DNA from: Promethearchaeota archaeon
GTDB lineage: Archaea; Asgardarchaeota; Lokiarchaeia; Sigyniarchaeales; SOKP01
NCBI GenBank assembly: GCA_048941015.1
Contig: JBHLNZ010000024.1
Coordinates: 1 to 44,968, forward strand
Direction of reading: 5' to 3'
Length of the DNA: 44,968 bases
A model generated the notes under the pieces. That model was not told where the DNA came from. It saw only the letters and a list, made by a program, of their open reading frames with translations, and made no database searches. Shown here piece after piece: positions 6,078 to 18,543 of this stretch. Each line of letters opens with the position of its first letter. Position 1 is the first letter of the stretch. The translations under genes and the position numbers were made by a program.

Positions 6078-9000
6078 GTGATAAGCACCATGAATAAAAA
6101 GAAACAATTTACAAAAGTATTCTCAGTGTCAATAATATTAATAGCAATAACTTCTGGGACTCTTTATTTCAGTTTAATGCCTTTTCTTTCTAATTTTAGC
6201 TCTAATGAAGTAATTAAAGATGATTGTAAGGATTTTTTAAGTCCCATTTCAAGTATAGCTGGAGAGCATCCTTGGTGGGATTCTAATTGGCCCTATAGAA
6301 TGTTAGTAAATATCACAAATCAAGCTGGCGTTGATTTAAAGAATTACGGTGTCAGCGTTGTTTTTCCCTATGGAGATCCAGGATATCAAGATAAAGTTAA
6401 TGACACTCTTAAAGATATAAGAGTTATTGAATATGTTGATAATGAACCGATTGAAAGAGAGTTTTATATTTTTCAAGATTTCAACGGTGAAGATTATTCA
6501 GTGGGAGATGCAACGATTTATTTCAATACAAATCTTTCTGCTTCTAGTAATCCTGAAACCGACGTTTATTTATATTTCGGAAATATGAATGTTGAGAGTA
6601 CTTCAGTTGAATATGGTCTTGGGCTAGTAAAAAATGGAGACTTTGAATATGTCCCGAGTGGGGACGACCCAACTGGCAATCCCTCAATTGCACCTCATTA
6701 TTATAACCCAGTAGGGTGGAATTGGTCTGATGATGTACCTGACGATATTGCACCTAGACTTCCAGATGTTGGAGAAGATTCACAAACAGAAGATCAAGCT
6801 ACTGAATGGTGGCAAAATTGTTTAATTGATGTTCCTGGAGGTGTAGAACAAGTAAGAGGAACCTATACTTATAAATGGGGCTCGAATCAAACTTCAATAA
6901 CTGATACTATAGGTAATGATGATCAATATGCTGGAGTTTTATATACGAACCCATTTGACGTTCCAATTGTTAATGATGGTAGTGGAAAAATTTATATGAG
7001 CCTTTGGCAAAATGTTAAAGTTTGGGGATTTGATGGGAGTTCATCTAAAGCTTGGAATGATGGGTACTTTGTTCGAGTAATTAATGCAACTGATGGTATT
7101 CCTGTAGATCCTGATCAACATGAACAAATTGGCGAATATTTAGAGTATTTTAAGGGAATAACACATAATAATAAAGGATTTTATTCCTTACAGAATTATA
7201 CAACTGGGACAATAACTGGAACCTTTGATACGTCCCAGGGCGATTTAACAGGTTTGGTAACATTTGATCTAAGTGACTATATGGGTCAAACTATTTCATT
7301 AGAATTCGGAATGTACGGTGATGAAAATACTGTAGGTAATTATGATACCGCTTTTGTTCAAGTAGATGATATTGAATTCACTTACAGTGATGATATTACA
7401 GTTGAAGTAAATGAGATTCAGTCACAGAAATCAGATATAACCGTAATTGCGCGAGATATTGATGGTATGATAACTCCAAATGCCGAAATTTCTTTAATGC
7501 AAGGCATAACACCAATAAAAAAGCAAACTACTGATGAAACAGGTTTAACAATTTTTACCGGTTTAAATTTTGGTATATATAACTTCTCTGTAAATTATAG
7601 ATTTAGTCCTTCCTATGAAGATGAAGTCTTCAATAGCACGAGAGACAATTTTGGAACATCGAATTGGAATTTATATAATGTATCTGAATTGTCCCAGACA
7701 TTCAATTTATATTTGGATATATGGACAATTGATTTTGAAATAGCAGATTGGGATGATGATCCTCTAAGTGATGGATATGTTAAAGTTTATAATGATACGG
7801 AAGGTACACTATTAAAACAGATATCATTAGATAATGGTACTGCAAGATTTCGATGGAATAATGCTTCTTTTTACTATTATGAAGTTTATTTCTATAACAC
7901 AAGATATAACGTTAATAATTTCCTTTTGAATTCTAGTTATATATATCGGTCTACCTACAATCAAAACGAAAAGTATTATGATCACTCTTTGCCTTTAAAT
8001 ACTTATGATCAAGACCCTAGTGATTATTATAGGGTGATAGAGCGTATTTACACCGAAGGATCGATGAGTGATTTTAGCAACAAAAAATTGATTAACTTTA
8101 ATATAACATTAGAAGCAATGAACGAACGAATTGACAATATGACTGTTTACTACATTGATAAAAATAACCAAACGACAGGAAACATCATATATCAAAACCT
8201 CACTATGTCAGGTACGACCTATTTTAAGTCTATTGATATTGGAACAATAGATAATGATAAGTTAAAATCTGAAAATTACGAGGCTTACGGAATTCTGATA
8301 GATGTTCAAGGATATAATGCTGGGGCTCATACAGGCATAATCAAGATCAATACAACCGAAATGACGAATATTTATAACAAAACAGCTTTGTCTAAATTAA
8401 ATATTCGAGTTATTGACGATGCTGATTCTTATAATCCTGTTCCTTTTGTTAGCGTGCGAGTTTGGAACGGTACAACCATTATTACTACTTTAACAACAAA
8501 TGATGATGGTTGGGCGTCTCATAGCGATATATTTTATAAACCTTTTATATATCTAATCGGCTTTAGCTATAACATCACACTTAGAAGAATTGGTGTAGCA
8601 GCTGATTTTAAATTGAATGATACATCTCCAAAGCAATGGGAACCTTCCGGAGTTGTCTCTATATATAATTATACGCTAACTCAAAATTCTTCCGTTATAT
8701 TAGATTACGAAGCAGCACCACCACCTCCCACTTTGGAAACTCAAATAGATATGATTGCTGAAGTTTCGCAAGCAATTTGGGGAAGTGGAAACCTGCATAT
8801 AACCATTAATGTGTCATATTACAATGGAAGTATTTGGAAGCTAGTACCTGATGAGGGTATCTTTACATGCTATGTAGAAGATTGGGATACAGGTCAAACT
8901 GTATTAATAGTAGATTTAGTCGCAAATTATCAAGGCCTTAATTTAATGAACTATTCTCTTACTATAAATTCTAATAAATTATCCGCTGGTAATTCTTATA

Positions 9001-17440: not shown

Positions 17441-18543
17441 TGCCAGTTGGATTGGTAGTGATGAGATGGGATGAAAGAGTAGGTACTGAAATTTTAGCTA
17501 AATATCCTGAAGAAATAAATGTAACTGACAAAACTTTGATGCAAGTATATAGTACTCATGAGTATAGTGGAGAATCAGGAATGATAAGTTTAATGGTTGG
17601 GTCATTAAATATTGCTTCTTATTATACTGGACCAGAAAAAGGATATTATATCCTTTTATTATTAAACTTAGATGACGATCCTGATGCTTATGAAGGAGGT
17701 TTAGCTGATACATCAAGGATTATTTTACAAAATCTTGATGATGATAAATATTTTGCAATGGTTCCCTCATTATTTCGAAGATTATCAGTATATCCTACGC
17801 TTAATGATGAACAGAGATTAGCGATGACCTATCAAGATGAGATAAAGAGAATGATTATTAATAGACTTAGAGACGAGGGCGTAGTCTCAAAATCAGAATT
17901 AATGGTATGGTTAAAAGACAAATATAAGCAAGGATTCGTAGATTTAGAGGGCGTTTTGATTGAATTAATTAAGCGAGAAATAATTAAGGAAGCATCAGTA
18001 AAAGGTATGCCTTCTGAGTTAATTTTCTTGACAAATGACATAATGATCTTAAGAGTTCCTCCTGTACAACTTCTAAAAGATCCTGAGGATAGAGGATTAC
18101 CTGTGCAACTTGCTGAAGATTATAGAACAGAAACAAAAAAGTACTTCCAAAATTACAGGCCTTCTGAACAAGATAATCTTAGGATTATTGATGTTATCAT
18201 TAATCCTCAGGTTTATGAGACTTTAAGATTATTAAGAAACGCAATAGTTACTAAGAATGACCTTGAAAAGCTTAAAAAGAAAGGAGTTGATGATATAGAC
18301 GAAGTTTTAAGAATGCTCTGGGAGAGCCAAATGATTCAAGTTTTTCAAGATGATAGAGGAAATGAATATTATGCATTGTTTACTGATTTTTACATAGATC
18401 TCATTTTTCCAAAGTATTTGTTAAATATTATCAAAGCAGAATATGAGAAAAAGTCTAAAGCAGATCAGGTATTAGTTGAGTATCTTAATGTACTCGAAAA
18501 TAGTTATATGAGTTTAAAATCCTCTGGAAAATCAAAAGAATAA
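17440..18543 (+). CDS. Longin/uDENN-like + tandem winged-helix protein B, paralog of 10391-11500
   Basis: Colinear with protein A over its whole length (GMISLMVG, LNLDDDPD.YEGGL, KEASVKGMPSEL). ATG 17440 overlaps the upstream TGA (TGATG) and gives MPVG, matching MPLG; GTG 17437 is an alternative start. Confidence 0.6.
   Translation: MPVGLVVMRWDERVGTEILAKYPEEINVTDKTLMQVYSTHEYSGESGMISLMVGSLNIASYYTGPEKGYYILLLLNLDDDPDAYEGGLADTSRIILQNLDDDKYFAMVPSLFRRLSVYPTLNDEQRLAMTYQDEIKRMIINRLRDEGVVSKSELMVWLKDKYKQGFVDLEGVLIELIKREIIKEASVKGMPSELIFLTNDIMILRVPPVQLLKDPEDRGLPVQLAEDYRTETKKYFQNYRPSEQDNLRIIDVIINPQVYETLRLLRNAIVTKNDLEKLKKKGVDDIDEVLRMLWESQMIQVFQDDRGNEYYALFTDFYIDLIFPKYLLNIIKAEYEKKSKADQVLVEYLNVLENSYMSLKSSGKSKE

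Follow-up and report, generated by a model that had tools for sequence, protein, structure and literature searches.

A candidate three-part membrane module in Asgard archaea: giant surface proteins, an NPRL2/3-like longin adaptor and a longin-Arf-like GTPase

Introduction

GATOR1/SEACIT, whose NPRL2-NPRL3 (Npr2-Npr3) pair is a GTPase-activating protein (GAP) for RagA/Gtr1, and C9orf72-SMCR8 (CSW), a longin-DENN GAP for Arf, are among the described systems closest to the locus discussed here. Asgard archaea are the prokaryotes most closely related to eukaryotes, and Asgard genomes carry dozens of small GTPases together with dozens of longin/roadblock proteins. The locus lies in a 44,968-nt stretch of DNA from a Promethearchaeota archaeon of the Lokiarchaeia (assembly GCA_048941015.1, contig JBHLNZ010000024.1, positions 1 to 44,968; hereafter the window), where two gene pairs, each encoding a giant surface protein (the receptor) and a cytoplasmic protein (the adaptor), flank a gene for an Arf-like GTPase. 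We give a probability of about 0.65 to the reading that it represents a conserved Asgard three-part membrane module composed of a surface receptor, an NPRL2/3-like longin adaptor and a dedicated longin-Arf-like GTPase.

The adaptor shares the architecture of NPRL2/NPRL3 but has no Pfam match and no conserved arginine finger. The GATOR1 client is a Rag/Gtr protein with a G domain and a C-terminal roadblock, whereas the GTPases linked to the adaptor combine an Arf-like G domain with an N-terminal domain of ~120 aa in longin order. No equivalent of DEPDC5 was seen, and the anchor would be the tail of a surface protein instead of a lysosomal scaffold. With C9orf72-SMCR8 the locus shares an Arf-family client, and the spacing of W10-D11-x3-G15 in the adaptor equals that of W33-D34...G38-P39 in C9orf72. 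The adaptor has no DENN module, however, the proline of the GP motif is not conserved, and no SMCR8-like arginine donor was identified; the C9orf72 resemblance is that of a short motif and may be convergent.

Two further systems invite comparison. MglA-MglB likewise places a prokaryotic small GTPase gene beside that of a roadblock/longin-superfamily regulator, although MglB is a single roadblock, MglA is not Arf-like, and the system has no receptor partner, winged helices or surface-protein fusion. MglA organises adhesion complexes in Myxococcus, while Arf1 recruits AP-1 and AP-3 to cargo tails. The Arf1-AP-cargo arrangement shares with the locus an Arf-type GTPase, a longin-fold adaptor and a short tail motif on a transmembrane (TM) protein, but the Asgard module comes without adaptin trunk or appendage, clathrin or vesicle evidence, and its GTPase without an amphipathic helix.

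Parts of this inventory have been described in Asgard archaea. NPRL2-like longin families and longin-GTPase fusions are known, and only two conserved neighbourhoods of eukaryotic signature proteins were named besides ESCRT (Liu et al., doi 10.1101/2020.10.19.343400). Longin-GTPase architectures have been catalogued in MK-D1, where GTPase genes generally do not stand in operons with regulators (Tran et al., PMC10933270), and some Asgard Arfs carry longin N-termini (Zhu et al., PMC11914678). C9orf72-SMCR8 is reported to depend on W33-D34 of C9orf72 for its GAP activity towards Arf, and the GP motif (G38-P39) to mark GAP-type longins; GP-motif longins occur in Heimdallarchaeia, the question of which GTPases partner GAP-like longins being left open (PMC12290439, Traffic 2025). 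FLCN/SMCR8-type longins have also been reported in Asgard genomes within this set of papers. The literature searched, which does not cover every paper, holds no description of the surface-protein tail, the receptor-adaptor fusions or the adaptor-GTPase operon, in line with the statement of the original prediction that no published account was known. A longin platform with a GTPase is already known; what is new here is the coupling of a longin-platform regulator and a small GTPase to a cell-surface protein.

Linkage of the adaptor and the GTPase

Shallow synteny within the window's own family (f1) proves nothing by itself, so other families were sampled. Genome-wide searches with fetching of loci covered 34 adaptor loci outside f1. 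A full-length GTPase of the same architecture is present in the cluster at 17 of these 34, in nine further families (ten with f1), and directly adjoins the adaptor in 14 of the 17, often with a 4-nt overlap. The gene order is shuffled: adaptor-GTPase (L057, L060, L064, L082, L084, L086, L090), GTPase-adaptor (L072), receptor-adaptor-GTPase (L069), adaptor-receptor-GTPase (L073), GTPase-adaptor-receptor (L066, L088), or a GTPase divergent from an adaptor-receptor pair (L062, L068). Conserved adjacency with shuffled gene order is the standard signature of a functional link. Because the linkage is kept in ten families in varied orders, these sequence comparisons make a functional tie between adaptor and GTPase very likely; the synteny search across Asgard genomes by which the original prediction was to be judged came out in its favour as far as linkage goes.

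In five of five distant genomes, the gene that genome-wide best matches the GTPase of the window, with N-terminal domain and G domain both covered, adjoins an adaptor; each of these genomes holds just 5-17 Arf-like matches. Genera g1 and g2 include 20 genomes in which an A-type adaptor is immediately convergent with a GTPase of ~347 aa. Adaptor and GTPase both occur in nearly all genomes of families f1-f5, f9-f11, f14, f15, f21, f23 and f28, and both are essentially not found in f7 (adaptor 1/28 vs GTPase 0/28), f16 (0/11 vs 0/11), f24 (1/21 vs 0/21), f29 (1/11 vs 0/11), f26, f27 and f30, counts that are taken over related, non-independent genomes and carry no p-value. The sole adaptor matches in f7 and f24 (G205:C317:737-1840; G295:C234:528-1613) are ~61% identical to a Loki protein, sit on short contigs and seem to reflect mis-binning, not a genuine occurrence of the gene. 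Presence is discordant in f18, f19 and f22, probably through the insensitivity of a single-sequence adaptor query; a profile search finds the adaptor in f22.

The arrangement seen in the window is of narrower distribution. Two pairs flanking the GTPase, as originally described, are present in the window and recur in the order A, GTPase, B in eight f1 loci, all within genera g1 and g2, and do not extend beyond those two genera. Tandem pairs without a GTPase, adaptor-GTPase operons without a receptor and receptor-adaptor pairs without a GTPase are all common. An A+B adaptor heterodimer was considered but is no general requirement: only one full-length adaptor copy came from several distant genomes (G038, G006 and G011 in profile searches; G280, G025, G007, G002 and G059 at a stricter threshold).

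The receptor and its tail

Within f1, the adaptor follows a tail-bearing giant protein in 17 of 17 fetched loci. The adaptor of several genomes is the C-terminal domain of a single open reading frame (ORF) of 2500-3000 aa, two of which were verified as uninterrupted (2663 and 2661 aa), and an exhaustive search returned further receptor-adaptor fusions. The linkage of receptor and adaptor, conjectured from the two pairs in the window, holds phylum-wide, natural fusions included.

The receptors are predicted to be type I single-pass proteins with a signal/anchor, a glycosylated ectodomain, a single C-terminal TM segment and a basic tail. Hydrophobic segments lie at both ends, and the N-terminal signal sequences are ordinary. 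N-x-S/T sequons number 37 in the ectodomain of receptor A (2.9 per 100 aa) and 31 in that of receptor B (2.4 per 100 aa), against none in the tails; the cytoplasmic proteins have 0-2 (0-0.45 per 100 aa). Sequons that are dense in the ectodomain and missing from the tail fit type I topology. Pfam gave no confident domain for receptor A, and searches of Pfam, NCBIfam and the ESM Atlas gave no name for the tails.

The conserved tail, 75-100 aa long, carries the signature YRxxQxA[KR]IPxxVKK, a basic stretch and then WxxhGLS...LG, found phylum-wide in 51 tails from 35 loci. A TM+tail profile, seeded from the window's two tails and iterated over 678 ORFs from 40 loci, matches solely giant proteins that adjoin adaptors (in f1, f2, f3, Odin-like f5, Thor-like f9 and f15), the receptor of a third pair in the window's genome among them; the same element occurs in f6, f17, f23 and f28. 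Judged by sequence, the TM+tail module is homologous across the Asgard phylum. The tails have an isoelectric point (pI) of ~10 and the adaptors one of ~5. Because fusion, translational coupling, co-conservation and opposite charge come together, binding of the adaptor to the receptor tail is the most economical explanation and is quite probable.

Several variants of the pair were observed. One genome (G210:C9:430343-464784, partly L051) carries five fused receptor-adaptor genes of ~2660 aa each in tandem on one strand at ~8.3-kb spacing. In G065, the closest relative and a member of the window's genus, the counterpart of receptor B is a "headless receptor" of 143 aa (L050:9006-9437), in which TM segment and tail are preceded by no more than a short N-terminus, and is still followed by the adaptor and then RuBisCO. 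The window's genome has a third, divergent pair on another contig (L075, G000:C12), with a receptor at 4068-8087 (1339 aa) and an adaptor at 8108-9235 (375 aa, 29% identical). This pair is followed by a 667-aa protein with a TrmB-type winged helix-turn-helix (wHTH) and coiled coil (9245-11248), a roadblock protein lies upstream, and no Arf-like GTPase is nearby. A similar coiled-coil protein, 818 aa long and ending in a MarR-like wHTH, overlaps and directly follows an adaptor in f20 (L081:7353-9809).

Small ORFs accompany the adaptor in some families. Between adaptor and receptor, Odin-like f5 and f15 carry an ORF of 136-161 aa (L058:8620-9042, L061:8805-9290, L067:9062-9472), and in f15 and f17 standalone paralogs of the adaptor longin (~120-160 aa) stand beside full-length adaptors (L061:10696-11178, L067:10970-11416, L088:1832-2194). 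Pfam has no match for either group; by their sequence, the standalone longins are candidates for a second longin partner.

The adaptor family

The AlphaFold2 model of the adaptor (predicted local distance difference test score, pLDDT, 94.6) consists of a longin followed by two winged helices. Its N-terminal domain runs beta-beta-alpha-beta-beta-beta-alpha-alpha, the order of a longin fold with no N-terminal helix, and helix-helix-helix-wing elements are visible further along. In a Foldseek search, ranks 1-10 are all GATOR1/SEAC entries, matched as entries with chains not told apart (probability 0.72-1.00, at least 0.95 in eight of ten), over 164-480 aligned columns, mostly ~290-340. Template-modelling scores against these entries are only 0.2-0.25 because the domain orientations differ. 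As modelled, the whole-length architecture is of the NPRL2/NPRL3 type, a longin and then winged-helix-like C-terminal domains. Model, Foldseek and profile matches uphold the proposal that the N-terminal domain folds as a longin with two winged helices after it.

The family was seen solely in Asgard-labelled metagenome-assembled genomes. One search returned 662 homologous proteins, all annotated as hypothetical, and the exhaustive search, clustered at 50%, gave 318 representatives. Neither Pfam nor NCBIfam has a match for the adaptor, and the ESM Atlas gave neither name nor structure. In the adaptor tree, A-type adaptors form one well-supported clade, B-type adaptors a separate paralog clade and the fused forms a clade of their own. 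Counted over 53 family members, the W10-D11-x3-G15 motif of the beta1-beta2 loop is nearly invariant (W10 48/53, D11 42/53, G15 48/53), and P23, H40, S60 and G64 are conserved as well.

Winged helix 2 matches wHTH families of the ArsR/TrmB/MarR type by sequence: the family profile at 248-317 matches PH1932 (ArsR-type, E 8.5e-5), and scattered members match HTH_20, HTH_5 or TrmB. Such matches could mean that the adaptor is a membrane-tethered transcription factor, its winged helices binding DNA, the receptor tail sequestering it at the membrane and letting it go on a signal, and the GTPase being accessory. The sole conserved adaptor arginines, R205 and R266, both lie in the winged helices, and coiled-coil proteins with a wHTH follow some adaptors. 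This alternative is nevertheless very unlikely. The adaptor is acidic (pI 4.9-5.2), as are both winged-helix modules in paralog B, and its fold matches NPRL2/NPRL3, where such domains make protein contacts; fused forms would keep the domain at the membrane permanently, and what is conserved beside the adaptor is a GTPase and no promoter-proximal target.

The GTPase

Pfam Arf matches residues 122-256 of the GTPase (1.8e-21; 76.8 bits vs a cut-off of 22.3), leaving ~120 aa N-terminal and ~70 aa C-terminal to the match; Arf proteins are hit in the PDB too. AlphaFold2 (pLDDT 88.4) places the N-terminal domain in the longin order of strands and helices, and Foldseek matches the G domain to Arf1, Arf6, Arl1 and the Asgard ArfR1 (8oum) with template-modelling scores of 0.77-0.82 and a root-mean-square deviation of ~2.2 A. 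WDFAGQEQFSYLW is conserved in the subfamily, which carries the WDxxGQ...LW switch II/interswitch signature of the Arf family and keeps the catalytic glutamine (WDFAGQE), the P-loop and NKQD, the L056 copy excepted. The N-terminus is the ~120-aa longin-order domain and not the amphipathic helix of Arf. According to these models the GTPase is a longin-Arf-like fusion, as had been supposed.

Weak Pfam SRPRB matches among the GTPases, and the combination of a longin with an Arf/SR-beta-like G domain, recall the SRX-SR-beta pair of the signal recognition particle receptor. GTPase and adaptor could accordingly be imagined as SR-alpha(SRX)/SR-beta-like biogenesis or targeting factors that insert the giant proteins through the C-terminal TM segment and tail, and the conserved element does include the TM segment. 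An adaptor permanently fused with the mature receptor would, however, ill suit the part of a transient targeting factor, adaptor-GTPase operons occur without receptors, and the receptors' own signal sequences are ordinary, so that this role is highly improbable.

Two relatives of the GTPase stand apart. In the window's genome a second longin-Arf-like GTPase (L076, G000:C89, 5964-8039; 691 aa, G domain 75% identical) has a long low-complexity/coiled-coil C-terminal extension and no linkage to an adaptor; its ortholog in G132 (L052:5658-7553) is the gene directly downstream of a receptor-adaptor fusion, and the annotated ORF there has no canonical start for the longin part. In f2, a 571-aa longin-GTPase-like protein with degenerate G3 and G4 (L056:3429-5144, G165) is probably a pseudo-GTPase. 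Its gene, 3.5 kb away from a receptor-adaptor pair, adjoins those of a protein with HEAT repeats and of a highly diverged adaptor paralog (L056:151-1188, 24% identity).

Weighing the module reading

Several results count against a three-part module. About half of the distant adaptor loci have no nearby GTPase and about half no receptor; five have neither, some of them at contig ends. In MK-D1-like f2, three adaptor loci that hold pairs, each fetched with 20-33 kb of surrounding DNA, showed no intact GTPase, which agrees with the statement on MK-D1 by Tran et al., and the f2 genome G165 has just the degenerate copy at L056. Pfam NPR2 and NPR3 match neither adaptor A (P0002) nor adaptor B (P0005) at E<=1 and are not among the families that the 53 family members most often hit; no match of a member to NPR2, NPR3 or folliculin was seen. 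The proline following G15, which would complete the GP motif, is present in 6/53. R67 of adaptor A, put forward at first as an arginine finger, is an arginine in 5/53 and is ruled out in that role; no longin position holds arginine in at least 60% of the 53. Aligned by hhalign, the N-terminal domain of the GTPase and the adaptor longin give a probability of 1.4%, the two longins being not detectably related by sequence.

Synteny in f1 adds to this list: RuBisCO, which comes after adaptor B in 11 loci, and the Rag-like GTPase, present in eight, are as syntenic as the Arf-like GTPase, and six f1 loci hold tandem pairs without a GTPase. The Arf-like GTPase might by the same token be a mere neighbour in an inherited gene order without function. 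That explanation is close to refuted by the adjacency in nine further families, in varied orders and with overlapping reading frames, by the best GTPase match lying beside an adaptor in all five distant genomes, and by phyletic patterns that co-vary.

Proposed mechanism

In the proposed module, a giant glycosylated type I protein would hold a variable ectodomain (Ig/prealbumin-like, LamG-like) outward and its conserved basic tail in the cytoplasm. The acidic NPRL2/NPRL3-like adaptor, whose synthesis translational coupling would tie to that of the receptor, would sit permanently on this tail through its acidic winged-helix part, an association that some lineages would have fixed by fusion. The third part would be a dedicated GTPase whose own longin replaces the Arf amphipathic helix and which, because of that replacement, would need a protein partner to reach the membrane. 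Adaptor longin and GTPase longin would form a longin-longin platform like that of NPRL2-NPRL3 or C9orf72-SMCR8, on which the G domain docks, and the receptor-bound adaptor would, where the surface protein is located, set or read which nucleotide state the GTPase is in.

These steps differ in strength. That the adaptor is a regulator or effector of the linked GTPase is, on balance, probable, while the pairing of the two longins is a tentative suggestion with the odds somewhat against it. A GAP with an arginine finger of the GATOR1 type is unlikely because the adaptor longin has no conserved arginine; a glutamine-orienting GAP, a guanine nucleotide exchange factor (GEF) or an effector is possible. 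Ligand sensing, an outside-in direction and GEF or GAP activity of the module are things that we only infer.

The direction could also be reversed. Following the logic of cargo adaptors, the GTP-bound GTPase would recruit or activate the adaptor on the tail so as to sort, cluster, position or remove surface proteins, for instance into protrusions or at contact sites, and the surface protein would be what is controlled and not a sensor. The short, strongly conserved tail motif resembles a sorting signal, the ectodomains are hypervariable as in adhesins, and AP sigma/mu longin subunits in Arf1 complexes are among the adaptor's structural matches. Tandem arrays with up to five fused receptors suit structural or adhesive proteins better than dedicated sensors, and a single GTPase serves two or more receptor-adaptor pairs. 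Yet no coat, ESCRT or cytoskeletal gene is consistently present in the cluster, and some adaptor-GTPase operons have no receptor gene nearby (L057, L060, L084, L086, L090). By analogy with these systems, such inside-out sorting is a serious if unlikely alternative; the evidence does not separate it from outside-in signalling.

Layout of the locus and its surroundings

The ORF list of the window confirms all five ORFs (Table 1) and, together with the junction reads, agrees with the original prediction of two paralogous pairs, a ~1450-aa receptor and a ~368-aa adaptor each, joined by 1-nt overlaps. The stop/start overlap reads TAATG in pair A (10389-10393) and TGATG in pair B (17438-17442). The coordinates likewise bear out an Arf-like GTPase gene between the pairs, separated by 91 nt from pair A, with which it is convergent, and by 425 nt from pair B, from which it is divergent. 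For receptor A, an alternative ATG at 6090 is as plausible a start as 6078. Adaptor B is listed from 17437 (368 aa); because its homologs begin MP.G, the true start is taken to be the ATG at 17440. Adaptors A and B share 64% identity over 360 aa; between the receptors identity is 34% over the C-terminal ~400 aa, where the TM segment and tail are best conserved, and are hardly alignable elsewhere. A scan of the intergenic regions for sigma-70 promoters and intrinsic terminators gave nothing better than shuffled sequence, with models that are unsuited to archaea.

Table 1. Features of the module and of its neighbours in the window (positions in nt of the window; domain limits in aa)
Feature	Position	Strand	Description
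Rag/Gtr1-like GTPase	2578-3510		Pfam Gtr1_RagA 6.9e-21; upstream of the module in eight f1 loci
Receptor A	6078-10391	+	1437 aa; predicted type I giant surface protein with N-terminal signal/anchor, beta-sandwich-rich glycosylated ectodomain, C-terminal TM segment and basic tail
Receptor A TM segment and conserved basic tail	TM ~10083-10160, tail ~10161-10388	+	pI ~10
GAAGGAGGT Shine-Dalgarno-like motif, copy 1	10374-10382	+	In the last receptor A codons, 8 nt before the adaptor A ATG (read from sequence)
Adaptor A	10391-11500	+	369 aa; longin 1-120, winged helix 1 ~123-206, winged helix 2 ~222-322, C-terminal helices; pI 5.2
GTPase	11592-12632	-	346 aa; longin-order domain 1-122, Arf-like G domain 125-273 with G1, G3(Gln) and G4 intact, C-terminal three-helix bundle 285-345
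Receptor B	13058-17440	+	1460 aa; plan as receptor A, plus LamG/ConA-like domain (aa 314-470) and prealbumin/Ig-like domains
Receptor B TM segment and conserved basic tail	17123-17437	+	Tail pI ~10
GAAGGAGGT Shine-Dalgarno-like motif, copy 2	17423-17431	+	In the last receptor B codons, 8 nt before the adaptor B ATG (read from sequence)
Adaptor B	17440-18543	+	367 aa with the ATG at 17440 as start; 64% identity with adaptor A
Form III-like RuBisCO	18613-19959		Follows adaptor B throughout f1

The remaining window holds Asgard housekeeping and Asgard signature genes, among them the Rag/Gtr-like GTPase, eS25, HEAT-LRR (leucine-rich repeat) paralogs, form III-like RuBisCO, histidine biosynthesis and DNA ligase. 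Four minus-strand paralogs with a HEAT-like N-terminal region and variable LRR arrays stand among the housekeeping genes (19999-20958, 28683-30056, 30085-31584, 33932-35434). The Rag-like GTPase was considered as a client of the module and is unsupported in that role: like RuBisCO it is syntenic in f1 alone, and the loci fetched for other families did not contain it. A RuBisCO-like gene lies ~6 kb from the adaptor in two f15 genomes (L061:16229-17515, L067:16326-17618), probably by coincidence or as old synteny.

Significance

The module would be a specific, phylum-wide pairing of one NPRL2/3-like family with one subfamily of longin-Arf-like GTPases, in a field where the matching of regulators to GTPases has been an open problem, gene arrangement being in general no guide to it (Tran et al.), and the conserved tail of giant surface proteins would give this pair a membrane anchor. 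It bears on whether Asgard longins act as GAPs or GEFs and on how an Arf-like GTPase without an amphipathic helix reaches the membrane. A more speculative proposal, judged improbable, is that GATOR1, FLCN-FNIP and C9orf72-SMCR8, the longin GAP complexes of eukaryotes, have their origin in an Asgard module whose NPRL2/3-like longin-winged-helix protein, held on the cytoplasmic tail of a surface protein, controlled a longin-fused Arf/Rag-like GTPase. If that were true, receptor-to-small-GTPase signalling at the membrane would predate eukaryotes, and the lysosomal nutrient-sensing machinery would be an internalised version of it. The locus offers a testable candidate link from the cell surface to a small-GTPase switch, and it bears on whether such coupling predates eukaryotes.

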